Below, in pieces: positions 1,461 to 44,129 of a DNA stretch of 64,000 nt. Position numbers and translations under genes: made by a program. Under the pieces are notes generated by a model. That model did no database searches. It was not told where the DNA came from and saw nothing but the letters and a program-made list of their open reading frames with translations. Positions within the stretch are counted from its first letter, which is position 1. Each line of letters begins with the position of its first letter. Source of the stretch: Scenedesmus sp. PABB004 (taxonomy: Eukaryota); the NCBI GenBank assembly GCA_014905635.1, contig JABVCE010000012.1, forward strand, positions 1-64,000, read 5' to 3'.

Positions 1461-1746
1461 CCTCGCGGCCCTCCAGGCCAAGAGGGAGGCGGACGCGCGG
1501 GCGGCCGCGCGTGCCCGGTGTGTTGAGCGCGCCGCGGCTGCGGGCCAGCGCCTCATCTCCAGCATGCTGCCTGCGCCGGCTTGCCAGCATGCGGTCCCGC
1601 TTGCGGGCTGCTCGGTTGGTCGCACTTGGAGGACACAGACACGTGCGGTGGCGGGGAGGGAGTTGGTTTGGCCCGCCAGGCGTTCCGATGTGTGACGCCC
1701 GGAGCGTACCGGGCCCCGCCGTGTAACCAACAACAACAAAAAAAAA
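1461..1746 (+). mobile_element. 5'-truncated retroelement fragment, (CAA)n-tailed family
   Basis: Ends GGCCCCGCCGTGTAACCAACAACAAC-An. The 3' ~170 bp match 3870-4042 on the minus strand. Confidence 0.75.
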
Positions 1747-2329: not shown

Positions 2330-2556
2330 GGCTGCTGCCCTCTGTGACTGCGGGGCATCACCTGGTCTCCTTGGGCGCCCGTTGGGCGTTGGCCTCTGGT
2401 TGTGCCGTTGGGTGATGTGTGTGTCCCTCCTCAGAGGGCGCCGGGGCGCGGCTTTTCACGAGGGGTTGCTGCGCTCTTCCCGTTGGAGCTTTTTTCAGTG
2501 GGCTGCCCCTGGGCTTCCGTCCTTGTTTGGTCGGTCACCCATTACAACAAAAAAAA
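2330..2556 (+). mobile_element. Extra 3'-UTR-only copy of family A LINE with poly(A)
   Basis: Near-perfect reverse complement of ~219-432; ends CCCATTACAAC-An. Confidence 0.8.
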
Positions 2557-3750
2557 GGGCCGCGAGGTTGGCGGCGCGCCGGCCGGTGTTCATGGCCGCG
2601 AGCGCGACCATGCACACCACGCGCCACACGCCCGAGTGCAGCCGCCGCGCGCCGGCGCGCCGCGCCGCCGGCGGCGGCGCGAACATGAGCCAGACGTGCT
2701 CGTGGTGCAGGCGCGGCGCGCCATCGGCAGGGGGCGCGCACCACTCGGCGGGCAGCGAGTCGAGCATGGCTCGCACCACTGCCTGCGCGATGGGACACTC
2801 CCAGTAGTGGTGCGCGCGGCCGGGGCAGGCGACGCCGCAGAGGCAGACAGCCTCGGGCCGGGACACGCGCTCAGCGGACGCGAGACCGTCGAGCGCGAGC
2901 CGCCAGTACACCTCCTTCACCGCGTTGTCCCAGCGCAGCCGCCACAGCTTGCGCAAGGCGACCCTGACCGACGCGGTGAGGGCCAGCTCCCGGGGGAAGC
3001 GCGGCGTCGACGGCGGCCCCGTCCAGGCCGGCTTGCGCGGCTGCTGCAGCCGCGGCGGCGCCGCAGCGGCTGCGGCCGCGGCCGCCGCCGGGTCCGGCGC
3101 GGCCGCCGCCGGGACCGGCTGGGCCGCCGGCTGTTGCCCCGCGGCTGGGGGCAGCGCGCGCGGCGTCGGCGACGCCAGCCCCAGCGCCTGGCACGCAAAC
3201 GCGACGTGCTTGTCGCGCCGCTGCGTGTCGACGCCGCCCGGCATGACGAGCTGGAGCAGCGTCGCCTGCTTGACGGTGAGCTTGGTCAGCAGCACGGGCA
3301 CCGCCCGTGACCCTTGGTACAGCCGCCAGCCCAGGCTCGGCACCAGGTCCGCCTCGGCCCACTGGGCCGCGGGGTCTGGAGGGTGTGCCGGCATCACGCG
3401 CGTGCCTCGCGGGGGCAGCGGCGGTAGGGGCGCAACGCGCGCCGCCTCCACCCACCCCGCAGGCACCGCAGCCAGCAGCGCCTGGACGTCGACCCACTCG
3501 GCCCGCTCCGCGTTGGCGTCGTGGGCCAGCGCCTCCGGCCCGCCCGCCGCCCAGCGCTGCACGCGCACGAGGTCGCCGAGCGAGCGCACCAGCGTGCGCG
3601 CGTAGCCTGCGCAGCGGCCGCCGACCTCCGGCACCGGCCTGATCTGCAGGCCGCGCGGCCCCGAGGGGTACAAGTCGCGGATCAGGGGGTTGCCGAAGAC
3701 CGGCACGTCGGCGCACCAGGGCCCAGCCGCAGGGGTAGGCTCGAGCTAGA
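2557..3750 (-). mobile_element. L1-like LINE (family B) ORF2 C-terminal fragment
   Basis: ORF 2495-3706 reads VFGNPLI...LWRLRWDNAVKEVYWRLALDGL...CLCGVACPGRAHHYWECPIA...HVWL...VWRVVCMVALAAMNTGR. These motifs are homologous to the host LINE C-terminus at 17.5-18.2 kb. Confidence 0.8.
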
Positions 3751-3770: not shown

Positions 3771-3805
<35 letters not shown>

Positions 3806-3853
3806 GGTTACACGGCGGGGCCCGGTAGACTCCGGGCGCGTGAGCGCTCCACA
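3769..3853 (-). mobile_element. Short (CAA)n-tailed fragment with long microsatellite tail
   Basis: About 12 TTG units followed by GTTACACGGCGGGGCCCGG on the plus strand. Confidence 0.75.
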
Positions 3854-3858
3854 TAACA

Positions 3859-5330
3859 TTGTTATGGTTATTATTGTTGGTTACACGGCGGGGCCCGGTA
3901 TACTCCGGGCGCGTGAGCGTTCCACATCGAATCGCCTGGCGGGCCAAACCAACTCCCTCCCCGCCACCGCACGTGTTTGTGTCCTCCAAGTGCGACCAAC
4001 CGAGCAGCCCGCAAGCGGGACCGCATGCTGGCAAGCCGGCGCAAGGCGTGTAGCGAGCATGGCGCGGCCCAGGCGCGCGCAACTCACCAGCAAACTCACC
4101 TGCATGCCGCCCTCTGGTCTCGACCGCGCGCCGGAACGTGGCACAAGGCAGAAGAACCGCTGCGAGGACCAACCCCCGCGCGCCCCCCGCCCCGCCGCCG
4201 CCCCCGCGGCCGACGCCGCCTTCTCCCCCACCCCGGTCGAACGCACACCCAGCCCGGCGGTGCCCCGGGACGCCACACACACCGGCCTACAAAACTGGCA
4301 GCGGGGCAGCACCAAACACACACGCCCGCACACACACAAAGAGCCTCACGCACCGGCTGGCGTGAGCGGCGCCGGGCACGGTGCAGAGGAAGGGGGTGCT
4401 GCGCCGCTCAAGCAGCGCAACACACCATGGCGGGGTGCGCAGCGCGCGACAAAACCCGCGAGGCAGGCCCAGGACGACGCCGCTGCCGCCTGAAGGTCCT
4501 GCTGCGGCCGGAGCGCACGCGCTCACGGCCGCCTGTCGCCGCCGCCGCGCCTCGGGGGGAGGCGCGGCATGCAGCTTGCCGAAGAGGCGCTGACCAACGG
4601 CCTCGGCGCCCTCCACGCGCCTGGGTGGCGCAGCCTCCTGCGCGTCTGCCTCCGTCTTGGTCTCGAGGTTGTCACTGCTGGGGATGGCCATGCCGCCGGC
4701 GGGGTCCCACCACCACGGCCGCTGCGACGCTGCCGCTGCCGCCGCCGCTGCCGGCGACGCTGTCCCTGTCGCTGCCGCTGCCACCGTCGCCGGCGACCCT
4801 GCCGCTGCCGCCGCCGCCGGCCCAGCCATGCGGACCGACGCTCCACACGCCCGAGAGCCGTGGCCGCGCCCCGGCGCGCCGCGGCGGCCCGGCCTCGCCG
4901 GCGCCGCCGCGCGCCGCGCTGCCCCGCCGTGCGCGCCGTCGCGCACAGGCGGGGGCATGCCGCGCCGCCCCGGCCGGCCGGGCGCCCCCGCCAGGCCACC
5001 GGGCCTGCGCGCTGGGCGCCCGGTGCCACGGGGGCGGCGCGAGTGGGGCCGGCGGATCGCGATCCTCCGCCCCCCCCCGCCGCAGCGCGAGGGGGCGTTG
5101 CACCTCCACTGATGCGGCGTAGTGGCTGGCCAGGTGCCTCTGCCAGGCGCTGGGCCTGCACGCGAGGTCCACGGTCCAGCGGCCGCGCCGGGCGGGCCTC
5201 TAGGGCTGCCCGGCGCATCGCTCAGCCCAGTGCGGCGAGGCGCGGCCCCGCGGCCCGCCGCCCCGCCACCCATGGCTTCCCTGAGCTGAGGCCGCCTCAT
5301 CGCGGCGCGCTACACCCCGCGCGGCGCTGA
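3859..5330 (-). mobile_element. Longer, degenerate (CAA)n-family retroelement fragment; 5' limit uncertain
   Basis: Decayed tail at 3859-3880 and the shared 3' end. The peptide NLETKTEADAQEAAPPRRVEGAEAVGQRL (~4580-4670) resembles ALQAKREADARAAARARCVERAAAAGQRL at 1465-1555. Confidence 0.5.
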
Positions 5331-5433
5331 GCGCGGCGCTGAGCGCCGCGCGGGGCGCGGACGGAGATCCTACGTAGCCCTACATAGCTAGCAAGTGAAG
5401 TAAGTAAGGGGGCGGTCCTTGTTACCATTTAAC

Positions 5434-5472
5434 TTGTTGTTGTTGGTTACACGGCGGGGCCCAGTACGCTCC
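5434..5472 (-). mobile_element. Micro-fragment of the (CAA)n-tailed family
   Basis: TTGTTGTTGTTGGTTACACGGCGGGGCCCAGTACGCTCC on the plus strand. Confidence 0.7.
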
Positions 5473-5477
5473 CTTAC

Positions 5478-5647
5478 TTAGAGACGTTTTTTTTTTAACA
5501 TTTTAGAATATTTTCGGGCGATTTCTCTGATTTCTTTGGCATTATTCTGCATTATTTGAAATAACAAAAATGACAAATAATAAATAATATTCCCGTTTGA
5601 CATTGTGCTTTTATATATGTTTGCTCCGCCAGGAAATGCATCCTGTC
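5478..5647 (+). promoter_or_regulatory. AT-rich upstream region of the tRNA gene with a TATA-like element
   Basis: The only long AT-rich tract in the window; TTTTATATAT at ~5609-5618, 30-40 bp before the tRNA. Confidence 0.6.
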
Positions 5648-5720
5648 GGGGACGTAGCTCAATTGGTAGAGCGCTCGCTTCGCATGCGAGAGGTCCGGGG
5701 TTCGATTCCCTGCGTCTCCA
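5648..5720 (+). tRNA. tRNA-Ala (anticodon CGC)
   Basis: 73 nt. Acceptor stem GGGGACG/CGTCTCC with the G3:U70 Ala determinant, D arm GCTC...GAGC, anticodon arm CTCGC-TTCGCAT-GCGAG, GGTTCGATTCC B box, discriminator A, no encoded CCA. Confidence 0.97.
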
Positions 5721-5728
5721 GGCGCGAG

Positions 5729-5735
5729 TTTTTTT
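5729..5735 (+). terminator. Pol III terminator (T7)
   Basis: Run of seven T's 8 nt after the tRNA. Confidence 0.8.
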
Positions 5736-6403
5736 CTCTCGGAAGCAGGGCGTTCTTGCGCGGACGTGGCAGCGGCTGCGGCCGCGGCGGCAGCAGCCGT
5801 GGCAGCAGGCGGAGACGCCGACGACGTCGGCGCAGCCGCGCTGGGGTCGCAGGCGCCGGTGCAGCCGGCATCGCAGGCGGAGGGGGCGCCGCTGGGGCCG
5901 CAGGAGCCGCTGGAGCTGCTGCGGCCGCCCCGCGCGCCCCGGCCGCGCGAGCAGGCCCTGGACGAGGCGCTTGACGGGGACCCGGTCACCAAGCGCCAGC
6001 ACGCGGACGGCCCGCGCCCGGCTGCGAAGCCGCCGGACCTCGGCGGCCGGGTCGGCGCCGCGGAGCTCGGCGCCGGCGGCGGGCCGCTGCACTCGCCCTT
6101 CCCTCGGCCGTGGCGGCAGCCGGGGCGAGGGGACGGCATGGACTGGGCGCAGGTGGTAGACGGAGCGACGGCCGCGCCCGAGGGCGGCGCGGCGGCAGGT
6201 GTGCTGGTGGGACCGGAGGTGGCGATGGACGGCGGGGCGGGGGCCTGACCATACCATGCCCAGCAACGTGAGGTGTGTGAGGCTAGCCTGCCACAATGTC
6301 AACGGCCTGGCTGCCAAGGTGGCGGCGCTCACTTCCCACTGGGCGCGGCTGGGCCTGGACGTCGTGGCAGCAGTCGACACGCACGTGACCTGGTTTGAGA
6401 GGG

Positions 6404-6694
6404 ATAAGATAAGATAAGATAGTTACACCATAGGCTCGCGCCCATTGGTCCCGCGCCCCTTAAGGACGGTGTCCCGCATCTTCCAGATGTCCATCACATA
6501 ATCTGCCACAGAGTGAACAGCAAGTTGATCCTGCAGCATGTCACCAAGCAGATAACGCCGAGCCTGCTCCAGTGCTGCACATCGACTCGCCGCGCCGGTA
6601 ACGGCAGCCCGAGGGGCCGCCGCACCAGCAGAGATGCTGCTGACGCTGACCGCCGCGCTGACATCATCAGCCCGAGGGGCCGCCGTATCAGCCG
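6404..6694 (-). mobile_element. 5'-truncated RTEX-like LINE copy with (TATCT)n tail
   Basis: Matches 7225-7512; TSD TGAGAGGG at 6396-6403 and 6695-6702. Confidence 0.9.
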
Positions 6695-7213
6695 TGAGAG
6701 GGGGCCAGTTCAGCGACAGCTCAGCAACCTGGGGTGGATAAGCTATTGGTGTGAGGCGCTTGAGGGAGCAGGTCAGAGCCGCGCCCGTGCGGGCGTGGCG
6801 ATCCTGGTGCGGCGCTCGCTGCTGGCAAGCGGCGTGCTGCGCGTGCGGGGCGACGTCGCGGCCCCGACCGCGGGCGCGGCGCGCGGCCGGCTGCTGCGCG
6901 TGCCGCTGGAGTGGGCGGGGCAGCGTATCGACGTCGTGGGCGTGTACCTGCACGCCGGCGACCCAGCCGCCAACGCTGCCATCATCGGCGGCGAGCTGGC
7001 GGAGTGGCGGCAGCAGACGCAGCAACAGCGGACGGAGCTGGTGGTTTGCGGGGATTTCAATTTTGTGCCGGCGCCCGCCCTGGACCGCCGGGGCCTGGTT
7101 GGCCAGCAGCAGCAGCAGCAGCAGCACGCGCAGCAGGCCGGGCCGGGCCCGGCAGGGTCGGCGCCACCCCACCCGGGGTCGGCGCACGACCACGGCCCTG
7201 CGGCGGCGTGGGA

Positions 7214-10200
7214 TAAAAAAGATAAAGATAAAGATAGTTACACCACAGGCTCGCGCCCATTGGTCCCGCGCCCCTTAAGGACGGTGTCCCGCATCTTCCA
7301 GATGTCCATCACATAATCTACCACAAAGTGAACAGCAAGCTGATCCTGCAGCAGGTCACCAAGCAGATAACGCCGAGCCTGCTCCAGTGCTGCACACCGA
7401 CTCGCCGCGCTGGTAACGGCAGCCCGAGGGGCCGCCGTACCAGCAGAGACGCTGCTGACGCTGACCGCCGCGCTGACATCATCAGCCCGAGGGGCCGCCG
7501 TATCAGCCGTGACGCCGTTATCGCTGATACTGACCGCCGCGCCTGCGTCAGCAGCCCGAGGGGCCGCCGCGCTAGCCACGACGCCGGGGTCGCTGACGCT
7601 GCGCTGCTGCCGCCGCCGTCAGCTCCAGCCGCCAGCTCCTGGCTGCCGCTAGCCGCCATCTCAACACCAGCCGCACGCAAGTGCGCAGCCAGCGCGCCAG
7701 CATGCGCGCCCCGCCGCTGGCACGGAGGTCCGCAAGCAGCGCAACGAGGCGTGCAGGGCGGCCGGGCGCGCCGCACTCAAAGAGAAAGTGCGCGGCCGAT
7801 TCGGGCGCGCGCGCAGCGCAGCAGGGGCAGCGCTCTCGCTCCGCCTGCTGCGCGATCGACTCCCCCCGGCGCGCGTGGCTGTGGGCAGCGCGCAGCGGGA
7901 GGCACTCCATGCGCAGGCGCATGAGCAGCTCCGCCGGCCGGCCGCGCCGCGGGCCGCCGGGGCTGCAGAGCCAGCCCAGGTAATCCCGGGCGCACGGCAC
8001 GCCGGCGCGGCGCGTGAAGGAGCGAGTAGAGAAGACGCCGCTGCCAAAGGCCTCCCGATAGCGCCGCGCCACCGAGCCGCGGCCGGCGGCGGCCTGCCAG
8101 GCGCCATCGATGTGGTCGCCAGCAAGGTCGCAAAGGTGAGCAGCAAACTCGTTGCGGCTCATGCCAGCAGTAGCCACAACATCGACGCCGTAGTCCCGCA
8201 GGAGGCCGCCCACGCCCTTCCACCACGGCGTGGCGGGCCAGGCGTCGGCAACACGGCGCAACAGGCGGTCGGCTGGCAGGGCGCGCAGGCGGTGCCAGTA
8301 GCGCAGCATGAGGGTGTCGCAGACGACATGCAGCGGGGTGATGCCCAGCTCCTGCTGCAGGCACGCGTGCGACACGTTGGGCGGGCACCCGGTCATGCGC
8401 GCCACCAGCCCCGCCTGCCACGAGTCGAGCTCCGCGCGGCGCTCGACCGTGGGGCGGGCCCAGACCTGGGCCGCGTGCGTCAACACAGGCTGCACCACGC
8501 CCGTGAGCGTGAGCAGGCGCAGGCGCAGCGGCAGGCGCCGCTCGCGCAGCACCGCCGACTGAGCCCAGAACGCCTTGTCCGCAGCAGCCTTGCGGCGCTG
8601 CAGGTGGGCGTCCCAGCTGCGGGCGCTGCGATCGGCCGTCAGCCACGCGCCCAGGTACCTGTACCCAGTGACGCGCGGCACCTGCTCCGCGCCCCACGAC
8701 CACTGGTAGGCCGCCGCGGCAGCAGCCGCCGCAGCGACGGCACGCCGGGTGCGGCCCCCCGGCACCACCATCACCGCTGTCTTGGACGCGTCCGCCGAGC
8801 TGACACTGGCCTTGAGCCGCCAGCGGGCGAGCGCGGCGCGCGTGGCGCCAAGGAGCTGCTGCATCTCCGCCGGGCCGGCCGCAAGGCTGGCGCAGTCGTC
8901 CGCAAAGAGGAGCGCGACCAGCTTGTCGTCGGCGGCGCCTGGCTCGGGCGCGGGTGGCGCCGCGCCGGCGGGCGGCGCGGGCGGCGCGGCGGGCGCGGGC
9001 GCGGGCGCGGCGGGCAGCGGCACGCCCGGGCAGGCGGCCCACACCTCCTGGAGCACGGCGTTGATGAAGACGTTGAACATCGTAGTCGCCAGCGTGTCGC
9101 CCTGCTCCCACCCAAGGCCCGGCTCAAAGGCTGTGGACAGCGCGCCGCGGTGCCGCACCATGCTGCGCGTGCGGTCGGTCATGTTGGCGAGCACGCGGAA
9201 CAGGCGGCCGCGCACGCCCACGCGCCAGAGGTTGTGAAGCAGGCCGGAGCGCCACACGGTGTCGTAGGCCTTGGCGATGTCAAGGAACAGTACGTAGGTG
9301 TCGAGTCCCTGCGCGGCGCGGGCGTCGAGGCAGGAGGTGAGCATGAAGATGTTGTCGGCGGCGCTGCGCCCGGGCCGGAAGCCCTGCTGCGCGTCGTGCA
9401 GCAGGCCGTGGCCTTCAAGGTGGTCGGTGAGGCGCTTGTTGAGCACGAGGTTGTAGAGCTTGTCCACCGCGGAGCCGAGCGTGATGGGGCGGTAGTTGGC
9501 GGGGTCGGTCGGGTCGCCGCGCTTGTAGATCGGGGTGATGACGCCGGCGGTCTGGGCCTTGGTCTCCAGGGTGAACTGCAGGTTGAAGAAGGCGGCCAGC
9601 GCGCCCCAAAGGGGCTCGCCGCCGTACTTGAGCAGCTCGTTGGTGACGCCGTCGAGCGGGCTGGGGGCCTTGTTGTTGGAGAGGGCCTGCGCCTGGGCTG
9701 CGACCTCGGCGGCGGTGATGTCGGCGCTGAGGGGGTCCTGCTCGCTGTCGCTGCCGCTGGGGTCAGAGGCGGCGGCGCGGTAGCGCGCCACGTCCGCCTC
9801 GACCTGCTCGCGCCACTGCTCGTCAAAGTCTGCCCCGGCAGCAAACGCCGCGGGGTCGCTGACACTGGCGTACTGCGCTGCCAGGGCGTCTGCGATCTGC
9901 TGCTCGCCCACAACCATGCCAGTGCTGGCAGCAGCGCGCAGCGCTGCGGGGCCGCCAGGGCCCCGCCTGGCAGTGCCGGCAATCTGGCGCAGCTGCTCCC
10001 ATATGCCCTTGCCGTCGCCTGCCGCGTGACGGGCGTGAACCGCGTCAACGCGGCGGCCGAGCTCCGCTGCGCGCGCAGCCGCCACGGCGGACTTGACAGC
10101 CCGCTGTGCGGCGCACAGCTGGTCCCGCGCGGCGGCAAGCTCGGCAGCAGCCTGGGCAGGGGCGGCGTCAGCGTCGCCGCCGGCGGCCGCCCCCCGGGCG

Positions 10201-13200
10201 GCCGCCAGCGCGACATCGGCGTCGCGGCGCGCCTGCACGGCGGCTTGGACCGCCGGCGTGAAGATGCGCCGCGCGGCGGCGGCGTTGCCGCCGCCACCGC
10301 CCGAGCGCACCTCCCTGTAGCCGACGCTGCCATCGACCGCCGTCCAAATGGCATCGCACAGCGCAGCCTTGGCGCGCGCGCACGCCTCGCGCGCCGGCAG
10401 CAGCGCGCTGCCCACCTGGTCGGCGAGGGCAGCCACGTCGTCGGCATAGTCGGCCAGCGCGTCGGCGAGCTCCGCGCGGTAGGCATCGGCATGCCCCGCA
10501 TCGCGCTGCCCCGGGACCGGCTTGAGCAGGTCGGTGCGCGCGACGCGGCGGCGCAGGCCCGCGGGGGCGCGCGCGCGGGCGGCGGGGTGAGGCAGGCAGG
10601 TCCACAGCAGCAGGTGGTCAGACTTCGTGATGCGCCGATCGTCGGCCACGGTCAGGGCGCAGGGCGCCGGGCCGCGGCTGGAGGGGAGCGCCCACGCCGC
10701 TGGCGCGAGGACGTAGTCGAGCACCGAGCACTGCTCGGTGTGCGTGCCGTCAGCGCCGCACACGAGGCGGGCGCGGGTGTAGGCAGGCAGGCCGGTGGCG
10801 GTGGGCGCGCGCCCGTTGAGGGCGTACAGGTCAGTGGCGTCGAGCATGGCCAGCAGGGCCTGGCCCGCCGCGTCGGGCGCGCCGCTCTCCCCCCACTGCC
10901 CGATGCGTGCCGGCGGCTGGTCCGCCTGCTGCTGCGCTGGCGCGCTGCTGCCCACGCGGCTGTTGAAGTCGCCCAGCACCAGCACCGCGCCCCGCTCCTG
11001 GAACCTCTGGATGTCCGTCTGCAGCTGCGCGTAGGTGTCGGCCCGCAGCGCGGCGCTCTCCAGCGACGCCGGCGGCAGGTAGACGACGCCGACAAACGCC
11101 GGCCGCGCGGTCGCGGCGCTGCCGCCGCGGCGCAGCTCCAGCCAGAGCGCCTCGGGCAGCTGCGTGTCGGCGTGCGCGCGCACGAGCGGGGCCAGCGCGC
11201 GCGCGACGTAAAAGCCCACGCCCCCGCCCTGCCCCCGGCTGCGCGGCTTGCCGATGAAGGTGTAGCCAGGCAGCTCGTGGGCGACGCAGGGGTGGCCCTC
11301 CCAGGTCTCGACGACGGCGAGGATGTCGATGCAGAGCGCCGTCGTAGCAGCGGCGAGCTCGGCAGCCTTCAGCCTGGTCATGCCGCAGACGTTGATGCAC
11401 GCCACGCGGAGCCCCGCGCGGGCCCACGCCAGGTTGGCGGCGCGTACGAGGCCTGTGTGGCGGCGGCGCATGCGGCGGTCGGTGTAGGCGGGACACGCGC
11501 GGCGCGCCCGCGCCGCGTTGTCGGCCGCCGGGACGCGCTCCGGCGCGAGCGGCACGTCGGCGGCCGCCGCCCCGGCAGCCGGGGCGGCGGCCGCAGCGGC
11601 CGGCGCCGCCGGGGCGCGTCGGCGCCAAGCGCGAGCTGAGCGGCCGCGGCGGCGGCAAGGGGGTAGAGGTCAGCGCGCGCGCCGCGCGCGGCGAGCCCGG
11701 CCCAGTGCGGCGCGAGCTCGGGCGCGTCGGCGACCGCGTGCCGCGCAGCCTCGTCGGCGTCCATGTCCTCCGCGTCGCCGTCGGTGTAGGCTACGGCAAA
11801 GAAGGGCGGCCGGACGGTGAGCACGCCGTAAAAGTGCTGCCGGTGCGACCGGAAGTACTTCTTGACGACCACGCCATCTGCGGGCGTCGGCGGCAGCAGG
11901 CGCGCGCGCAGCGCGTGCACCGCGTGCGCTGCTGGTACGCTGCCGGCAAGGTGGCCCCGCGCCTCCTCCTCCGTCATCGTCTCGTCCTCGCCGTCGGTGT
12001 AGTGCACACGGTAGGCGTAGGGGCCGCGGGCGCCGCGGATCTTGAGCACCACGCCGTAGAAGTCGCCGTGGCCAGCAAAGTGCTTGCACACAATGCTGCC
12101 GTGCAGGCGCGGGGGAGCCGCGCGGCACTCGGCGCCGCTGTCCGGCGCCGCCTCGGCGGCGGCAGCATCGGCGAGCGCTGCGTAGGGGTTGGCGTCTGTG
12201 GGCAGGGGCGGCTGAGCAGGCAGGGCGCGGCCGTCCTCGCAGACCACGAGGCGCCAGCCGAGCTGCGCGCGCAGCGCCGCCGCCAGCGCCGCGCGGTGCT
12301 GGAGCAGCGCAGCGCGGTGGGCGCTGGGGATGCGCTGCAGGCGCACACGCATGACGCGGCGGCGCTGCGCCGCACGCGTGCTGCCCATCCACTGCATGCG
12401 CCCCGCGGCCAGCGCGGCCGCCGCCAACGTGAGCGTGTCGGCATCAGCCCCCGCTGCAATAGCCCGCCGGACGGCCTCGGAGAGCTTGCTGCGCGCGGGG
12501 TTGCCGCCGTCGATGGCATCCTCGGGGCCGACGCCAAACACCAGGGCAGAGAGCCCCAGCGCACAAGGCGGGGCCGCACGCTGCGCGACCGCCGCGGGGC
12601 GGCCTTGGGCATGACCTGTCGTGCGGCGGCGGGCGGCGGTGGCAGGCGGCGCGTGGGCAGGTGCGGCGGTGGGTGCAGCGCGCGCGCGGCCAGTGCTGCC
12701 GGGCAGGCGCGCGCCCCCAGCACGCCGCTCCGGCGGCCCCGCCGGGGTCGGCAGGGCCGCCGCGCGGCGCCAGGCCCCCTCCACCCAGGCGTAGTCCGGC
12801 CCCGGTGCGGGCCCGGCGGCGGACGGCCCAACCCCGAGCTTGTCGCTGGTGATGGTCCGCCACGCGCCGCCCACGCACACGTAGAGCGGCCCGCCGACGC
12901 CAGGACCACAGGGGCGCACGGCAGGCGAGCCCGGCGTGGCCGCTGTGGCCCTGACGCCGGCTGCAGCCGCCTCCGTTCCTGCGTCCCTGTGGTCCTGCAT
13001 GGTGTGTCAGTAGCTGGAGGGTGGGGCAGCCGCGTGCGCGCGGTGAGCGTGGGCGTTGGCAGGTGCTGGGCGAGCTGCAGCGGCGGCCGCGGCTGGCAGG
13101 CGAGCGCCCCGCCTAGCGGCTGCGCTGTGCAGGGGAGTCCGGCTGGGTCCGGCGGCGTGGCGCGTCTTAGGGGTGTGCACGCTGCCGCTGGCGGGCCAGA

Positions 13201-13768
13201 CGTCTCCTGCGCCAGCGCTGTCGCTCTCGGGGCACCCGCCCGCTGCCGCTGCCGCCGCTGCTGCCGTTGCTCCAGCGTGACCGACAGCGTGCGCCTCCGG
13301 CGCAGTGCAGCCCCCTTGAAGGTCAAGGGGTCCGCATCGCGCTGGGCACGCCGTCAGTCGCCTTGCCGTCGCCGCTGTCGCTGCCGTGGTCGCTGCGCTG
13401 CTGCTGCCGCACGCTGCAGGCCCGCCGCTTGCGCGGCGGGCCCGCCACGGCTGCCCTCACGTCTCCAGCCTCACGAAAACGCGCTCTGAGCAGGCGCGCG
13501 CGCCCGCACGGGCGCGCGCGCGGCCGAACGGAACTAGCCGTTGGCGGGCAGCCCGCCACGGCCGACTGGCTCCGCGCGGGCTCGCGCGGCTCCGGCGCTG
13601 CGCGTGCGGGCCGAAATAGGGTCTGGTGTGGCGCTGGTCCTGGCTTTTCGGCACGCAATGGCCTCCCGGGAGCCACCCCAAGTTGTTGGACGCAGCGATG
13701 TTGATAGCAAGTGTGTGTGTGCGTGTGCGTCCGTCTGTCGCAGGACTGCATGCCGATCTCCTAGGCCG
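7214..13768 (-). mobile_element. Apparently full-length (~6.55 kb) RTEX-like LINE with (TATCTT)n tail
   Basis: TSD GTGGGA at 7208-7213 and 13769-13774; the host frame rejoins as AAAWEQHL. Long APE-RT ORF and microsatellite tail. The clade call is inferred from the tail type and the C-terminal CCHC. Confidence 0.9.
7238..13000 (-). CDS. LINE polyprotein: 2x Tudor-like, AP endonuclease, reverse transcriptase, CCHC knuckle (apparent frameshifts near 11612, 7705 and ~7600)
   Basis: APE: INVCG, VETW, GGVGFYV, LGDFNSRVG, LDY, SDH. RT: NYRPITL, QQGFRPGRS, FLDIAKAYDTV, GWEQGDTL, LLFADD, YRYLG. Knuckle: CPCC...HFLFEC. Upstream are two K.F...FYG....Y.V.YTDG..E.M repeats. The terminal frame ends GREPVV-TAA at 7238. 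Confidence 0.85.
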
Positions 13769-13816
13769 GTGGGAGCAGCATCTGCCAGACTTGGCCGACG
13801 CCTGGCGGGTCAAGCA

Positions 13817-14219
13817 TGTTGCGCTGCTGCTCGCTGCTCAGTGGCGAGGCCGTTGGTGTGTGGCGTGACTCCGTTAAGATAAAGATAAAGATAAAGATAG
13901 TTACACCACAGGCTCGCGCCCATTGTTACAATCGCCAAGCAGTGGGGCGCCTATTTGTAGGGCGCGCGCGCGCTGGCTATAGCGCCACGAGCTACAGCAG
14001 CTACAGCGCGCTACAGCGCTACAGCGCGCTACAGCGCGCCACGGCGCGCCACGGCGCGCTCCAACAGCGCACGGGCTGTTGAGCTGTTCGCGAGACAGCG
14101 CGCGCGCAGCAGTGCGCGCGGGCTGATGCCAGGTGTAGCAAGCTACAGCCGGCTGTAGCAGGCTGCAGCCAGGTGCAAGGGAGCAAGGCAAAAATCAGCT
14201 AGAGTGCTGAATTACAACA
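13817..14219. mobile_element. Composite unclassified insertion in the host APE, including a GCTACAGC-repeat segment
   Basis: Interrupts the host at RVKH|PGRR. (C)AAGCA occurs at 13811-13816, 13936-13941 and 14220-14224. Confidence 0.55.
13877..13924 (-). mobile_element. Ultra-short RTEX-like 3'-end insertion
   Basis: Tail plus ~26 nt of element end; GTTA duplicated at 13873-13876 and 13925-13928. Confidence 0.85.
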
Positions 14220-14543
14220 AAGCACCCCGGGCGGCGTGCGTTCACGTATGTGCGCGCAAACGCTGCCTCGCGGCTGGACGGGATTCATTTGTCGGCGGGC
14301 GTCGCCCCGCAGCTGGCGTCGTGCTGGCACGCAGACCGGCTGGGCGCGGTCAGCGACCACACCGCGGTCGTAGCCTTGCTACTGCCGGCGGGGCGCGACG
14401 CGCTGGGCCCGGGGCTCCAGCGCCTGCGTCTCTCCTTCCAAGGCGACGCCGTGTGTCAGCGCGCCCTGCGCGACTGGCTGCACGCGCAGCACGCCCCCGC
14501 GGGCGACGCGGCGGTGTTGGGCTGGTGGCCGACATTCAAGCAG

Positions 14544-14602
14544 AAAAAAAAAAGATAAAGATAAAGATAGTTACACCACAGGCTCGCGCCCCTTAAGGAC
14601 GA
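14544..14602 (-). mobile_element. Ultra-short RTEX-like 3'-end insertion with internal microdeletion
   Basis: TSD AAGCAG at 14538-14543 and 14603-14608; the host frame rejoins as WWPTFKQRLIAKVGELN. Confidence 0.85.
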
Positions 14603-15262
14603 AAGCAGCGACTCATTGCCAAGGTGGGGGAACTCAATTTTGCTAAAAACTGAACCCAAACTGAACCTAGCTTTGCACACTGCTGCAGCATTGGCAATTG
14701 TGTTTGACGGTCGGGGCGGCAGCGACGCTGATTGGGAGGCGCGTATGACGCACGTGCGGCGCGCGCTGCGGCGTGTGTCGATGCTCCCGCACATGTCGTC
14801 GTTTGGCCGCGCCTTTGCGGCCAACGCGTACGCGCTGGCAACGGTGCTCTACGCGGGCCAGTTTGGGGGTGGCTTGACGGAGCAGCATCTCACTGACATC
14901 CTCAAGTGGTGCGGCGGGCTGGTGGACGCAGGGTTGGACCCCGAGGGCGACCTGCGCCGCCCGCCCGGCATCCCCAAGGCATGCATGGCTGCGCATCCGA
15001 GGGAGGGAGGCATGGGGCTGCTGCCGGTGCGCGAACACCTGTATGCGCGCTGGGCGACGGAGGGCGCGGAGCTCATCACGGGGCAGGGGGCCGCGGGTGC
15101 AGTGCCCTGGGCGGCGGCGTGTGGGGAGCTTTGGCGCGTGTGGGCGGATCGCGTGCGCCCCGATGCGGGCGCGTGCGGGGACACGGTTTGGGGATTGATG
15201 TTGTGCGACAAACGCCTTCTTTTTGACAGCGGGCGCCAGCGGCTGCCGCAGCCCCTACGCTC

Positions 15263-16059
15263 CGGCGGCCCGCGGCGCGGCCGGCCGGCGGAGCTGCTCA
15301 TGCGCCTGCGCATGGAGTGCCTCCCGCTGCGCGCTGCCCACAGCCACGCGCGCCGGGGGAGTCGATCGCGCAGCAGGCGGAGCGAGAGCGCTGCCCCTGC
15401 TGCGCTGCGCGCGCGCCCGAATCGGCCGCGCACTTTCTCTTTGAGTGCGGCGCGCCCGGCCGCCCTGCACGCCTCGTTGCGCTGCTTGCGGACCTCCGTG
15501 CCAGCGGCGGGGGCGCGCATGCTGGCGCGCTGGCTGCGCACCTGCGTGCGGCTGGTGTTGAGATGGCGGCTAGCGGCAGCCAGGAGCTGGAGGCTGGAGC
15601 TGGCGGCGGCGGCAGGCAGCGGCAGCGTCAGCGACCCCGGCGTCGTGGCTAGCGCGGCGGCCCCTCGGGCTGCTGACGCAGGCGCGGCGGTCAGCATCAG
15701 CGACAGCGGCGTCACGGCTGATACGGCGGCCCCTCGGGCTGATGATGTCAGCGCGGCGGTCAGCGTCAGCAGCGTCTCTACTGGTGCGGCGATAAAGATA
15801 AAGATAAAGATAGTTACACCACAGGCTCGCGCCCATTGGCCCCTCGGGCTGCCGTTACCGGCGCGGCGAGTCGATGTGCAGCACTGGAGCAGGCTCGGCG
15901 TTATCTGCTTGGTGACCTGCTGCAGGATCAGCTTGCTGTTCACTCTGTGGCAGATTATGTGATGGACATCTGGAAGATGCGGGACACCGTCCTTAAGGGG
16001 CGCGGGACCAATGGGCGCGAGCCTGTGGTGTAACTATCTTTATCTTTATCTTTTATCTT
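15263..16059 (+). mobile_element. 5'-truncated RTEX-like copy (~750 bp)
   Basis: Reverse complement of ~7215-7960; TSD TACGCTC at 15256-15262 and 16060-16066. Confidence 0.9.
15792..15838 (-). mobile_element. Ultra-short RTEX-like 3' end inserted in opposite orientation inside a sister copy
   Basis: Splits GGTGCGGCG|GCCCCTCGGG; no clear TSD. Confidence 0.85.
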
Positions 16060-16332
16060 TACGCTCGTTCGCGCTCGGGCTGCGCGCGCTGCCGCCGCTG
16101 GAGTGGCTGGGGCCGGGGGAGTACGACTGGCAGGCCCACAGCTGGGATGCCCCCCTGTGGGGCAACCCGCTGCTCACGGTGCGGCAGCAGTGGCGCTGGC
16201 CGGCCCAGCCGGGGGAGGAGTGTGTGCGTGATGTGGCAGTGGGCTTGGAATGTGTGGTAGCCCCGGGCTTGCGCGGGCTGCCCTGCCTGCAGACGGTGGG
16301 CCAGGCGGTCACGCTGCTGGCCGTTCTTGAAT

Positions 16333-17053
16333 GCTGCTGGAGCTGGCGGCGGCGGCAGCGGCAGCGTCAGCGACCCCGGCGTCGTGGCTAGCGCGGCGGC
16401 CCCTCGGGCTGCTGACGCAGGCGCGGCGGTCAGCATCAGCGATAGCGGCGTCACGGCTGATATGGCGGCCCCTCGGGCTGATGATGTCAGCGCGGCGGTC
16501 AGCGTCAGCAGCGTCTCTGCTGGTGCGGCGGCCCCTCGGGCTGCCGTTACCGGCGCGGCGAGTCGGTATGCAGCACTGGAGCAGGCTCGGCGTTATCTGC
16601 TTGGTGACCTGCTGCAGGATCAGCTTGTTGTTCACTCTGTGGCAGATTATGTGATGGACATCTGGAAGATGCGGGGCACCGTCCTTAAGGGGCGCGAGAC
16701 CAATGGGCGCGAGCCTGTGGTGTAACTATCTTTATCTTTTTATCAGCGATAGCGGCGTCACGGCTGATATGGCGGCCCCTCGGGCTGATGATGTCAGCGC
16801 GGCGGTCAGCGTCAGCAGCGTCTCTGCTGGTGCGGCGGCCCCTCGGGCTGCCGTTACCGGCGCGGCGAGTCGGTGTGCAGCACTGGAGCAGGCTCGGCGT
16901 TATTTGCTTGGTGACCTGCTGCAGGATCAGCTTGCTGTTCACTCTGTGGCAGATTATGTGATGGACATCTGGAAGATGCGGGACACCGTCCTTAAGGGGC
17001 GCGGGACCAATGGGCGCGAGCCTGTGGTGTAACTATCTTTATCTTTATCTTTA
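16333..17053 (+). mobile_element. Two head-to-tail truncated RTEX-like copies (junction ~16742) inside one TSD
   Basis: Two (TATCTT)n tails at 16726-16744 and 17033-17057; TSD TCTTGAAT at 16325-16332 and 17054-17061. Confidence 0.88.
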
Positions 17054-18486
17054 TCTTGAATCGGATCGGTTGACTCCGCCTCGTTGGGGCCTTGGGTTGG
17101 CGGAACACATGAATTACCTGGCTGCAGTCTGGGTGCCATGCCTGGCTTCCCGGCAGTATTACCAGGCAAGTAGGCAGCGTGCACTCGATGACGTGTGCGC
17201 GCTGGTTGACAGGCTGCCGCCATCCTGGGTGGCGGCGGCGCGAGCTCGGCTGGCGGCGGCGGCGCGCGCGGGCCAGCCCGTGAGCGCCCCGGCGCTGGTG
17301 CAACCAGCAGCGTTGGCGGCGGCACGTGCGGCGATTGCGGTTGGCCTGGGCTGGCCGCTTGTGGGTCGGCCGGTGCAGCCTGGTTGCCGGCCGGGGGTAC
17401 GGCTGGGGCAGCTCACGGTGGCGCTGGCCACGCGGCTGCAGGCGCTGCTGGCGCGCGCTGAGCTGCATGCCCGCCACCACCGCCACTGTCTGACGGTTTC
17501 TGAGTTTGATGGTTTGCCGCACATTGGTGATGATGAGCTTGCGATGCGCACGCGCCACGCCACGGTGTGCCAAGCCCTGGCGCGCTGGTGGCAGCTCAAG
17601 GTGCCCAACACGTACAAGGAGGCGGCCTGGCGGCTCACGCTGCAGGCCTTTCCAACTGCCAGCCGCATGCAGCCGGGGCCGGGCATGGTGGACTATTGTG
17701 TCTACTGCTGCCCAGGGCCGCCGGAGGCGCCGGAGCCAGCGGAGGCGTCCGGCCTGGGCGGCGCGCTGCACCCGAGCGAGGCGCACCATTTCTGGCGGTG
17801 CCCGGTGGCAGGCGAGGTGTGGGGTGAGATCGAGAAGCAGCTGGCTGCTTTTGGCTGGTGGCCGGACGGCGCGCGCTTGCACTGCAGGCACATCTAGCTG
17901 GGGCGCCGGCCGCGGGAGCAGCTGTCCCAGATGGTCTGGGACATGGTCTGCATCGCTGCAATTCACGCGTGCGAACGCGGCCGGCGCGTGGCCTGGATTG
18001 TCCTGCAAGTGCGGGAGCGTGCCTTGCCCTTTGACGTGGCTCGAGACATTGTGAGGCGGGCGGCAGTGAGTGCGTTTTGGGAGGCGCTGGCCGACTTTGC
18101 GGCGACCGCTTACGTGCCGCGCGCCGCCCGTACGCCCGACCTGACGGGCCAGCCCTTTCTGGCTTGGTGCACTCCCCGCGTCGCGGGGAGTGGCTTGGTT
18201 GTTATTCGGCGATGAGGATGGTGGCATTCTCCCAGCACTCCCGCGCGCGCGGGTTGCGCGCTCGCGGGCACGCGCGACCTGCGGTCACCGGCTGCTGCCG
18301 ACACTGAAATACTGCTACTGCCCAGCAGCGAGCGATCGGTCAAGGTGCGTGTGCGGAGACAGCACTGAGCGTGTGCAGGCGACGCTTTTGGGCGTGAGCG
18401 TGGCCACGGGCGGCAGCTGCGCGTGAGTGACTGACTATACCAAAGTGATGGGGTCCGTGTTTGCGCCGTAGGCGCTTGTTCACCCC

Positions 18487-18627
18487 TGGTAACCTGCTGC
18501 ATGACCAACTTGTTGTTCACTCGGTGGCAGACTATGTGATGGGCATTTGGAAGATGCGGGACACCGTCCTTAAGGCGCGCGGGACCAATGGGCGCGAGCC
18601 TATGGTGTAATCGACTTTGACTTTGAC
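18487..18627 (+). mobile_element. Diverged RTEX-like 3' fragment with (GACTTT)n tail
   Basis: Homologous to the element end (...GGCGCGAGCCTATGGTGTAA), followed by TCGACTTTGACTTTGAC. Confidence 0.8.
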
Positions 18628-18847
18628 AGCACTGCATACGTGCAGGCGTCGCGTTTGGGCGTTTGGCGTGCCCACGCGGGGGAGGGCCGAGCAGCATCGG
18701 CGCTGACGGCGGCGGCGACCCGCCGGGCTGGAGCCCCGGGCGCGTCGTTGCTTCCTACGTCGGGCCGCACGTGGTACGGGGCGCGGCTAGGCTGCGAGTG
18801 ACACGTTACACGGACCGCCCACCGCCGGCCGCCGCGCCAGACGGCGC

Positions 18848-21235
18848 TCAGCGCGCGCCGCTACTGCCGCCGCCGCCGCCGCCGCCGCTCGCGGCGGCCG
18901 CCTCGTCGTCGACGCGCGCAAACTGCCAGGTCCAGGCGGTGTTGTACAGGAACTGGCGGTGGTCGAAGCGGTTGTCGTCCGGCGAGTAGCCCTCGGCGTG
19001 GTACGCGGGCGGCAACACGGTGGCCTTGTGGCGGTTGATGGCGTAGAAGCGGAAAAACGCCTTCACCTGGCGGCGGCGCAGGGCGCGCGGCAGAGGGTGA
19101 GCGACGGGGGCGGCAGGCGACCAGCAGAGGGCGGCGGCGGCGCGGCGCGGCTCGGCGCGCCGGGGCAGCCCCCTCCGTCGCGCGCTGCCGCGCGCGCGCC
19201 TTGTCGGCGACCACGAGCGGCGGGTGCGTGTCGCGCCAGAGCGCGGCGGCGGCGCGGAACATCGCGACCGGCCCGCGCGCGCGACCTTGCGCAAGCGGCC
19301 GTACAGGCCCAGCTCGTCGTAGGTCATGCCCATGTCCGCCTCGTCGCTCTGCGGCGCGACGCCCGGCCTGCGGGGTCGGGCGCGGGGTCCGGGGCGCGGG
19401 GTCGGGCGCGCACGGCGCCGTGTCGCGCGCTGCCGCGTCGCGCCCGGCCGGCCGACGCGCGGCGCCCCCGCCCGGCCCGGGCCGGCCCGCGCCCCCGCAC
19501 CGGAGCGGCTCCAGCTCCGCGCTCGGCGGCGCGGCGCGCACGTCGGCGAGCGCGGGGTAGCCGAGCGCCGGCGCGGCCAGGCCAGGAAGGACCGCAGGTC
19601 GGCCTTGCTGACGCCGCCAATGGGGTTTATGTCGGCGGCGCTGCAGTCGTACTTGGTCAGGTACCCTCGCAGCGCCTCGTCCACGTTGGCCGCGCCCAGC
19701 ACGAGCAGGAAGCCGCCGCGCCGCCGCGCCCAGGGAAGCAGCTGCGCGAGCAGGAAGGCAAACACCATGCGCAGCCGCGCCTGGGCGCGGCGCGGGGGAG
19801 AGGGTTGTTGCGTGTGCGCGCCGGCGGGCGGGCGGGCCGGCGGGCGGGGAGGGGTCGGCGACCCAGAGCCAGCGGCGCCGGCGCCGGGCGCGGCGGCGGC
19901 GCGCGGCGCGCCTGGATGTTTTGCAGGGCCAGGTTCTCGGCGGGGCTGCCGCCGTCGACGCGGAAGCGCGGCGCCGCGCCCGTGAGCGCCGTGAAGAGCG
20001 CCGTGACCGCGGCCACGAGGCTGTCGATGCTCACGTCCAGGTGGTACGACCCCACCTGCCCCGCAAGCGCCTTGGCGCTGCGCACGCGCGGCGGCGGCGG
20101 CGGCGGCGTTGTTGGCGACGGCGGGGGCGGCAGCGGGCGGCGGGGGCCGACGTGGCGGCGGCGGCGGGTTGGCGGCGGCGGCGGCGGCTGCTGCGGCGGC
20201 GGCGGCGGCGGCGGCGGTGGGCGGCGGGCCGCACCGCGCGCGCGTGTCGGCGGAGCTGTTGGCGGTGCCCATGTAGACCGTGTGCAGCAGCCGCCCCGCA
20301 AGCTCGCCCGCGTCGCCGAGCGCCTCGCCCTCGCCGTACTGCCCCACGCGCCGCGCGTCGGCCGCCACGGCGGCGTCCCCCGCGGCGGCCGCCTTGACCA
20401 CCAGCTGCGCCGGGGCGCGCGGCGCGGCCGGCGGGTCGGCACGGGTCGGCTCGGCCGGTCGGCGCGGTGCGGCGCGGGGTGCAGCGCGCGCCCGCTGGTG
20501 CCGGCGCCCCACCTGGCACATGGAGCCCACGATCGCGGCGACGGAGCTCGAGTCGGCACCGCCGCTGAGGGGCAGCAGGAAGCCGGCCGCGTCGCTGCGG
20601 CGCAGGTAGTCCCACAGCCAGGCGGCGGGGCCGAGCGCAATCTCCTCTTCGGGGACATGGAACTGGGCGGCGCGCGCGGGCGCAGACGGACGCGGGCGGA
20701 GCAGGCGGCGGGCGGAGCGGGCGTCGGGCGGCGCGGGCGTCGGGCGGCGGGAGCCGCGCGCGCGCGCGGGGCGCGGCGGCGGCGCGGCGGCCTGCCCCGT
20801 CGTGGCGCGCGCGGGCGCGGCACACCCGCGGGGCGCGCGGCGGGTCGACCGGCCCCGTCGCGCGGCAGAGCTGGAACGGCACCGCGACCAGCGCGGGCGG
20901 CGTGGTGGCCGAGGCCTGCTCGCGCAGGCTGCTGATGGCCGCGCGGAAGGACACCACCTCGTCCAGGTCCACCGTGGCCGTCACGACCTGCGGCGGCCGC
21001 GCGCGCGCGCGCGCGGGGGGGGGGGGGGTGTCGTGCGCTGCCGCACGCGCGGGCGGGCACGCGCGGCCGCCGCGGCCGCGCGGGGCCGCCGCGTGCGTCA
21101 CCTCGACGTCCGCCAGGCTGAACTGGCTGCCCTGCGCGACGAGGGCGCCGTTGATCGCGACGCAGGCGCAGCCGTCGTAGTAGAGGCGCCCGCCGTCGCA
21201 GCCCTGCTGGTTGGCGTACAGGTACACGCCGCCCG

Positions 21236-44108: not shown

Positions 44109-44129
44109 TGCAGCCCCCCAGGCAGCGCC

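Follow-up and report, generated by a model that had tools for sequence, protein, structure and literature searches.

Nested Insertions of a Tudor-Bearing LINE Family in a Dead LINE of the Green Alga Scenedesmus sp. PABB004

Results

A Retroelement Island Around a Dead LINE

The DNA analyzed here is the stretch from position 1 to 64,000 of contig JABVCE010000012.1 of Scenedesmus sp. PABB004 (assembly GCA_014905635.1), 64,000 nucleotides in all and hereafter called the window. It belongs to a compact green-alga genome of roughly 78% GC and itself varies between 67 and 86% GC in 2-kb windows. A retroelement island occupies 0.2-18.7 kb, and at its core is a dead, L1-like long interspersed nuclear element (LINE), the host, from which the reverse transcriptase (RT) has been deleted. 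The subject of this work is a second LINE family, the inserted family, which encodes an apurinic/apyrimidinic endonuclease (APE), an RT and a tandem Tudor module and of which pieces lie in and beside the host (Table 1).

Table 1. Elements, domains and inserted pieces of the retroelement island (positions in the window; TSD, target site duplication)
Feature	Position	Strand	Remarks
Host, L1-like LINE	6256..18486	+	~3.7 kb without inserts; 5' limit uncertain
Host APE domain	6256-7213, 13775-13811, 14220-14543	+	Pfam Exo_endo_phos
Host C-terminal zinc motif	about 17700-17800	+	weak zf-RVT match (Pfam)
Third element	13812..14219	.	355 bp without piece 3; in host APE; TSD AAGCA (5 bp)
Piece 1	6404..6694	-	291 bp, 5'-truncated, (CTTAT)n tail; TSD TGAGAGGG (6396-6403 / 6695-6702)
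Piece 2	7214..13768	-	full-length, 6,555 bp; TSD GTGGGA (7208-7213 / 13769-13774)
Piece 2, APE and RT frame	7575..11669	-	C-terminal CxxC...HxxxxC motif
Piece 2, Tudor-bearing frame	11381-13006	-	542 residues
Piece 2, tandem Tudor module	11687..12139	-	residues 290-440 of the 542-residue frame
Piece 3	13877..13924	-	48 bp of 3' end and tail; TSD GTTA (13873/13925); inside the 355-bp element
Piece 4	14544..14602	-	59 bp of 3' end; TSD AAGCAG (14538-14543 / 14603-14608)
Piece 5	15263..16059	+	5'-truncated, ~750 bp of element sequence; TSD TACGCTC (15256-15262 / 16060-16066)
Piece 6	15792..15838	-	47 bp of 3' end and tail; self-nested, interrupts piece 5
Pieces 7 (16333-16740) and 8 (16741-17053)	16333..17053	+	head to tail
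Piece 9	18461..18627	+	3' end of a divergent or older subfamily, 85-89.5% identity; abuts host 3' end

The host APE begins at the ATG at 6256, and the stop codon of the host open reading frame (ORF) is at 18215. The whole RT domain has been lost through an internal deletion near 14620-14720, with the post-RT region retained, and the APE, post-RT and C-terminal parts are matched in tblastn by the distant LINE proteins P0036-P0038. Paralogues of the host are present in multiple copies in metagenome contigs. The ORF at 5670-6248, upstream of the host ATG, is of low complexity. Excising the third element from the APE domain makes the host read '...DAWRVKHPGRRAFTY...SRLDGIHLS' in a continuous frame. 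This 355-bp element contains internal GCTACAGCGC repeats and reaches a contig depth of 185-237 in one metagenome run (X3); it may be a repeat of this alga lineage resembling short interspersed nuclear elements.

Repeated Insertions of One LINE Family

With the longest copy, 7214-13771 (-), as the BLAST query against the window, we found nine to ten pieces of one LINE family with APE and RT, all between 6404 and 18627. The matches in the same orientation as the query were 6406-6697 (96.3% identity), 13881-13925 and 14548-14591 (100% each) and 15794-15843 (98%), and those on the forward strand were 15259-15791 together with 15838-16054 (97.6 and 98.2%), 16333-16739 (96.3%), 16741-17052 (97.8%) and 18487-18610 (89.5%). 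The end motif of the family, a 22-mer, had eight matches with up to three mismatches, all within 6416-17039, and none in 100 shuffles. Beyond 6.4-18.6 kb, the only BLAST match above 60 bits was a 111-bp, 78% GC-rich stretch at 20722-20828, and tblastn with P0003, the intact form of the family described below, and eight other LINE proteins gave no family piece beyond 18607 or before 6426. The original prediction, made from the letters of the window, that 18.7-64 kb is free of copies is thus confirmed by both searches. The lone tblastn exception was a match of the first 56 residues of P0003 to 1030-1200 (-) at 91% identity, which is not element sequence. P0003 being a full-length copy elsewhere, this match implies that an island repeat also adjoins another full-length copy.

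All six TSD pairs that had been predicted were verified in the flanks, are 4-8 bp long and differ from one another, and the predicted restoration of the host frame on excising an insert with one TSD copy was found at 6403, 7213, 15262 and 16332 and across 13812-14219. The pieces are 47-6,555 bp long and all nine have the 3' end in common. The prediction had placed nine pieces, in both orientations, inside a single other LINE. The count and the orientations agree with the BLAST result, with the proviso that the pieces at 16333 and 16741 have only one TSD pair between them; the placement holds for five pieces in the host, but the piece at 13877 lies in the 355-bp element, pieces 6 (15792) and 8 in or directly behind copies of their own family, and piece 9, with its BLAST match from 18487, at the host end. 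The recipients are therefore of three kinds, the host, the 355-bp element and the family itself.

Some of the pieces have peculiarities of their own. Piece 4 has lost 14 bp internally and has its tail lengthened by an A-rich stretch, and piece 6 has no clear TSD (0-3 bp). Pieces 7 and 8 stand within the single TSD pair TCTTGAAT (16325-16332 / 17054-17061), are 97.7% alike and have two derived variants in common; either piece 8 was inserted into the tail of piece 7 or the RT switched templates in one event. Piece 9 has a (GACTTT)n tail and no TSD, its match at the protein level extends back to 18461, and contigs of the host family cease aligning at 18493, at this piece, which is either an insertion or a shared 3' module.

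As the TSDs are distinct and both orientations occur, the insertions are independent events, and we count at least seven, possibly nine, in or beside the host. Private substitutions amount to about 0.4 to 3.7% per copy, a span indicating that the insertions are spread over time and adding to the case for independence, which had been claimed beforehand. The truncated 5' ends, the short TSDs, the microsatellite tails and the occurrence of both orientations show that insertion was by target-primed reverse transcription (TPRT). Descent of the fragments from the resident full-length copy as it now stands was considered and rejected: its private variants are not shared, the private A at 7320 and at 7326 being absent from pieces 1 and 5. 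Across the six TSDs and their flanks we found no common target sequence of the kind that marks a sequence-specific LINE, consistent with the lack of a TSD consensus in the original prediction. The only feature common to the sites, read by eye, is a pyrimidine after the nick (7/7).

Insert Boundaries in Metagenome Contigs

Seventeen public runs, all listed as metagenomes (15 from freshwater, 1 from sludge and 1 unlabelled) and none as RNA, each contained at most 40% of the words of 14000-19500. Contigs of four freshwater runs from four studies were aligned to 5800-19200. Joints bridging the inserts were found at 7207>13769 (6 shared bases), 13811>14220 (5 shared bases) and 15257>16062 (5 shared bases) in three of the four runs each, and at 13872>13925 (4 shared bases) in two. 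One joint-bearing contig continues upstream of 14674 for 842 extra bases, at odds with the RT-deleted copy of the window, which indicates that the joint contigs come from paralogous members of the host family and not from empty alleles; they confirm the edges of the inserts, not the timing of insertion. Exact-motif scans of metagenome contigs and genome contigs gave no matches.

The joints also bear on the reading of the cluster as an assembly or duplication artefact, with reads joined wrongly or segments duplicated in place of insertions. A tandem of 307 bp at 98%, made up of pieces 7 and 8, would suit this reading, but the six distinct TSD pairs, the private substitutions of each copy and the restored host frame speak against it, as do independent metagenome contigs that break exactly at four insert boundaries, and we find an artefact very hard to credit.

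The left flank of the host contains further retroelement debris. A second retroelement family has four 3' ends, at 1696-1745 (+), 3786-3854 (-), 3859-4043 (-) and 5425-5472 (-), with no matches in shuffles; the family ends in GTGTAACC(AAC)n, and the four 3' ends show ...GGGCCCCGCCGTGTAACC followed by a (CAA)n tail. All four ends lie in the left flank and none in the host. The C-terminal part of another L1-like LINE is found at 2498-3745 (-) ('...AHHYWECPIAQAV...'); it is free of pieces of the inserted family, and its relation to the host is a distant one, with 40-50% in short tblastx matches. An inverted pair of 194 bp and 99% identity with an A/T-run end, 239-432 and 2331-2532, is probably another short retroelement present twice.

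Homing to earlier copies, with new ones priming on the microsatellite tail or the body as in the self-nesting of the green-alga LINE Zepp, or local supply of reinsertions from the full-length copy in the host would account for piece 8 starting right behind the short tail of piece 7 within one TSD pair and for piece 6 lying inside piece 5. The (CAA)n family shows a like tail-then-copy arrangement at 3786-4043. In run X3, a tail end (16055) is joined to internal element sequence (12096) on the opposite strand, and next to a tail a loose end resembles the tail of the (CAA)n family; the X3 junctions are biased toward insertions of one transposable element (TE) in another because only TE sequence was aligned. 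On the other hand, five events (6404, 7214, 14544, 15263 and 16333) lie in host sequence unlike the family, the TSD starts match the tail little, and local supply is contradicted by the absence of the private changes of the full-length copy from pieces 1 and 5. Taken together, these explanations appear improbable.

Architecture and Relatives of the Inserted Family

In piece 2, the 5' untranslated region (UTR) is ~768 bp long and the stop codon TAA stands 5 nt ahead of the (CTTTAT)n tail. The frame at 7575-11669 gives Pfam matches to RVT_1 (2.4e-24) and Exo_endo_phos (6.9e-9). The intact form P0003 is one protein of 1,763 residues that contains two Tudor domains, APE, RT and a CxxC...H motif and ends in '...GRGTNGREPVV', and the family layout is a single ORF with an N-terminal region, Tudor, Tudor, APE, RT and zinc motif. 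Compared with P0003, the piece 2 ORF has at least two frameshifts and is therefore no longer coding-competent; indels are also seen at 7603-7708 relative to other copies. With APE and RT in one ORF, variable 5' truncation, a common tailed 3' end and short TSDs, the family has the properties of an APE-type LINE.

Elements of the RTE and RTEX type are characterized by a single ORF with APE and RT, an almost absent 3' UTR and a short tandem-repeat tail. The inserted family shows all of these hallmarks, whereas its length of 6.6 kb, its long N-terminal extension and its C-terminal zinc motif set it apart, and the label RTEX-like used in the original prediction is provisional. Sequence matches in PDB, to L1 ORF2p with 59 bits and to R2 with 53 bits, do not separate the two.

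Among named proteins, two models of Scenedesmus sp. PABB004 annotated as 'LINE-1 reverse transcriptase-like' come closest, and their tblastn segments are 95-99.6% identical to the window copy. Metagenome contigs roughly as long as the element supplied thirty further relatives with 42-69% identity, two of which reach 68-69% over half of the query. When the last 130 residues were searched against longer proteins, only P0003, P0004 and P0035 were found, a number too small for sampling the contexts of insertion. A profile scan of JGI metagenome contigs gave 79 loci on contigs of 1.2-11.8 kb, which is about element size. In L002, L007 and L008, an (ATTAT)n or (TAATG)n tail follows directly after the ORF stop. 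Three loci have neighbors of interest: in L007 (3677-5766), the (TAATG)n tail is immediately followed by an unrelated LINE RT fragment; L002 (4340-4730) has, at a distance of 0.6 kb from the main copy, a second 3' fragment that is inverted, internally deleted and provided with an (ATTAT)n tail of its own; and L033 has two copies 4.9 kb apart.

A Tandem Tudor Module Conserved in the Long Relatives

The Tudor module of the window copy matches Pfam PF21743 (PTM_DIR17_Tudor) in two stretches, with 35.7 bits against a cutoff of 27.2. The same domain is above the cutoff in P0003, P0004, P0010 and P0013 and below it in P0024, and gives no match at E<=0.001 in P0007, P0009, P0018 and P0027. We built a hidden Markov model (HMM) from the two repeats of the window and searched 36 proteins with it. 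The module was detected in all 15 LINE relatives of at least 1,490 residues, with two repeats in 10 of them and a single one in 5, whereas in the shorter relatives (<1,490 residues) it was never detected; the 15 long relatives are 43-50% identical, or only 40-48% when compared with P0003. The repeats follow the pattern K-R-F ... Y-G-V ... P-Y-x-Y-x-V-x-Y-x-D-G-D-x-E-T-M, with Y118, D120, D122 and E124 invariant.

In an AlphaFold2 model computed from an 11-sequence alignment (predicted local distance difference test score, 82.9), a helix joins two strand-barrel modules. Foldseek against PDB gave one match at E<=0.001, the tandem Tudor of BAHCC1 with H4K20me1 (E 6.7e-4), and the next matches were 53BP1, SETDB1, TDRD1, AGDP1/ADCP1 (H3K9me) and Spindlin, along with KOW domains of Spt5. 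In the ESM Atlas, PTM/DIR17 Tudor clusters were top-ranked with a score of 0.90. Searched alone (residues 150-470, near lengths), the Tudor frame had no homologue at E<=0.001, and phmmer against PDB gave none.

An exhaustive profile search yielded 345 cluster representatives at E<=0.001, and a Pfam scan covered 31 of the best 150 Tudor-profile representatives. Among these 31 are one further LINE (P0069), two that look like chance matches (bacterial surface proteins) and four without a family; the others combine this Tudor type with SET, bromodomain, Myb, RNA-dependent RNA polymerase, 5-hydroxymethyldeoxyuridine (5-hmdU) kinase or Kelch, or have long Tudor/Agenet arrays. The uncharacterized metagenome proteins P0131, P0082, P0064, P0099 and P0073 have a PTM/DIR17-type Tudor fused to RNA-dependent RNA polymerase, SET, bromodomain or 5-hmdU DNA kinase. 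The inserted family, for its part, has a Royal-family domain fused to the element protein and conserved in its lineage, and the tandem Tudor is a plausible chromatin tether.

Clustering of the Insertions and Its Possible Causes

The window without the family measures 55,348 bases, of which the host and its 355-bp guest make up 3,720 bp (6.7%). For all six TSD-flanked events to fall within these 3,720 bp, a uniform model gives a probability of about 9e-8, and drawing each site only among positions of like 50-bp GC gives about 8e-5. We consider a regional preference without a target sequence the best reading of this pattern, and homing directed to chromatin by the element's own tandem Tudor a plausible cause of it, only tentatively held. 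Besides the clustering, such homing is favored by the three kinds of recipient, the spread of the insertions over time, the Tudor module kept in the long relatives and its structural likeness to histone readers, the domains joined to this Tudor type in other proteins and, as anecdotes, the neighbors of L007 and L002. Under this mechanism, the tandem Tudor would read a histone mark that the island presumably carries and would retain the complex of ribonucleoprotein (RNP) and endonuclease there; nicking would follow at loosely defined, locally AT-richer sites within the marked region, with no sequence motif, and the hits would then be preserved because insertions in dead TE DNA are tolerated.

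Tolerance and composition together offer a different account, in which nicking is easier in locally AT-richer DNA, found at 78% GC almost only in TE debris, and in which, given a compact genome under efficient selection, only insertions in dead TE DNA survive. Chromatin would not be read at all, and the Tudor would serve another step, e.g., RNP assembly or evasion of silencing. The composition of the island agrees with this: the median 50-bp GC is 0.70 in the host and 0.80-0.84 in the flanks, and four of the six sites lie in 50-bp windows with GC<=0.62, which are rare outside the island and of which the host has about a third of the window positions. The pieces show no orientation bias (5 on the reverse and 4 on the forward strand), and the 355-bp element and the (CAA)n-tailed family pile up here as well. 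The genome of Scenedesmus sp. PABB004 is reported to comprise 39.8 Mb with 78.5% GC and 1.31% repeats (PMC12571836), a repeat content in keeping with insertions outside dead DNA being strongly purged. However, P of about 8e-5 for six hits in a 3.7-kb element remains after GC matching, and ~1,700 low-GC positions (50-bp GC<=0.62) elsewhere in the window are unhit. By codon periodicity, the 10-kb satellite at 33951-44120 and one-quarter to one-half of the remaining flanks look non-coding, and no family piece was found in this non-periodic DNA, satellite included. The retention of a reader-type domain across the clade is likewise left unexplained. We regard this account as possible, if doubtful, and as only a little less likely than homing by the Tudor.

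Several observations weigh against chromatin-directed homing. Matching for GC costs the clustering P three orders of magnitude, and the residual value is suggestive, not decisive, since ~600 windows of this size fit into a 39.8-Mb genome and the present one was chosen for its striking appearance. The satellite, and the left 6.2 kb with its own LINE debris, hold no pieces. The host has an observed-to-expected CpG ratio of 1.00 and the full-length copy one of 1.12, compared with 1.11-1.31 in the flanks, and although 16 of 29 private substitutions are G/C>A/T transitions, only 2 of those 16 are at CpG. The expected signature of CpG decay is absent from both measures, and the sequence thus bears no trace of cytosine methylation; the silenced transposon chromatin of the original prediction stays hypothetical. 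That the 355-bp element and the (CAA)n family accumulate in the same island fits a general graveyard of retroelements. Family copies next to ordinary genes also exist, as two annotated PABB004 gene models contain family fragments: in one, a 1.3-kb 3' part of the family is fused ahead of a glyoxal-oxidase/Ca-ATPase model, and in the other, rearranged fragments stand between TGD2-like and NUDIX parts. In the protein search, only 2 of the 79 metagenome loci had two LINE pieces, a count that weighs little because the contigs are too short.

The Tudor module itself adds to these difficulties. The Foldseek TM-scores are low (0.2-0.34) and the KOW domains are among the matches, so that the likeness to Tudor structures holds only at the level of the domain; the profile search of PDB was weak, its best match being the LBR Tudor (E 0.022); and the ligand could be a methyl-arginine protein or RNA. 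The original prediction of regional instead of sequence targeting therefore stands in part: the independence of the events, clustering above chance, the lack of a shared target and the conserved Tudor module support it, whereas the GC-based rival, the CpG measures, the other families and the gene-adjacent copies limit what can be concluded.

The PABB004 models P0034 and P0035, named CA1 and TGD2, are chimeras including family fragments and are likely annotation artefacts.

Other Features of the Window

A 73-nt tRNA-Ala(CGC) gene with a T-run terminator lies at 5648-5720 (+), ~0.5 kb 5' of the host ATG, with an AT-rich upstream stretch (5332-5762, 48% GC). A transfer-messenger RNA and two over-long tRNAs (26338 and 60336) reported by ARAGORN look spurious. 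Right of the island, a NAD synthase domain (Pfam, 1.9e-13) is encoded at about 19580-19780 (-) within the ORF 18851-20980, which places the beginning of a gene within ~1 kb of the island's right edge; it is the sole Pfam match among 46 long flank ORFs. Tandem repeats of 75/426 bp at 28212-32134 are codon-periodic and encode an Ala/Glu/Gln-rich repeat ('AEQLTAARQ...') with no Pfam match, probably a gene for a coiled-coil protein. The 10-kb satellite, 15 kb from the LINE island, has a 21/52-bp unit with a 177-bp higher-order period, lacks codon periodicity and is strongly asymmetric between the strands (GC skew -0.27, AT skew +0.6).

Discussion

Nested TE islands are common and alone cannot tell targeting from selection. 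The known systems that resemble the present one do so in different respects. Among LINEs with a defined target, R2, Tx1L in Tx1D, TRAS/SART and the microsatellite-targeting Dong, Kibi and Koshi each recognize one defined sequence. The inserted family is like them in that its copies are concentrated in one type of repeat, which may be another transposon, and unlike them in that the six TSDs and their flanks have no motif in common. In green algae, the tail of Zepp is poly(A); the tail of the family studied here is a (CTTTAT)n hexamer repeat, and most of its insertions, unlike those of Zepp and ZeppL, are in a different LINE. Zepp and ZeppL form clusters in green algae by nested insertion into their own copies (PMC8226300). 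The likeness to these elements, found at centromeres of Coccomyxa and Chlamydomonas, is that of a green-alga LINE whose 5'-truncated 3' ends pile up locally (PMC8226300), and in the present cluster two events are insertions into a family copy or right beside its tail. LINE/RTEX elements have also been reported in Chlorella centromeres (10.1101/2024.02.27.582245).

The closest logic appears to be that of the chromodomain-bearing Gypsy elements, and by this analogy the inserted family would be the LINE counterpart of the chromodomain-guided long terminal repeat (LTR) elements. Chromoviruses (chromodomain Ty3/Gypsy) and the Tudor-bearing Gypsy-10_Ec32 of Ectocarpus likewise have a Royal-family reader fused to an element enzyme, with a presumed role in steering. 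They differ from the present family in that the carrier here is a non-LTR element integrating by TPRT, and the tandem Tudor is N-terminal to the APE and not C-terminal to an integrase. Gypsy-10_Ec32, with its C-terminal Tudor, was presented in 2025 by authors who knew of no earlier TE with such a domain (PMC12477816), and going by that statement the Tudor LINE clade looks undescribed. Within the literature searched in full text, we found no paper on a Tudor domain in a non-LTR element, and the word Tudor is absent from the Zepp papers searched for it.

Of these results, the architecture of Tudor, APE and RT, which a deep clade has conserved, most deserves to be pursued. With a Tudor reader on a LINE, the question of how a non-LTR element might choose chromatin rather than sequence becomes concrete and testable. 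In its most far-reaching form, our proposal is that this green-alga APE-LINE clade is the first LINE lineage with a histone-reader module, in which the Tudor would tether TPRT to marked chromatin, heterochromatic or centromere-proximal, and so give rise to TE-in-TE nests that need no target sequence; as a whole we consider this unlikely, though worth stating. If it is true, non-LTR elements would have reached independently the chromodomain strategy of the LTR elements. At the reported repeat content of 1.3% (PMC12571836), such elements may mark the few heterochromatic or centromeric islands of the Scenedesmus genome.

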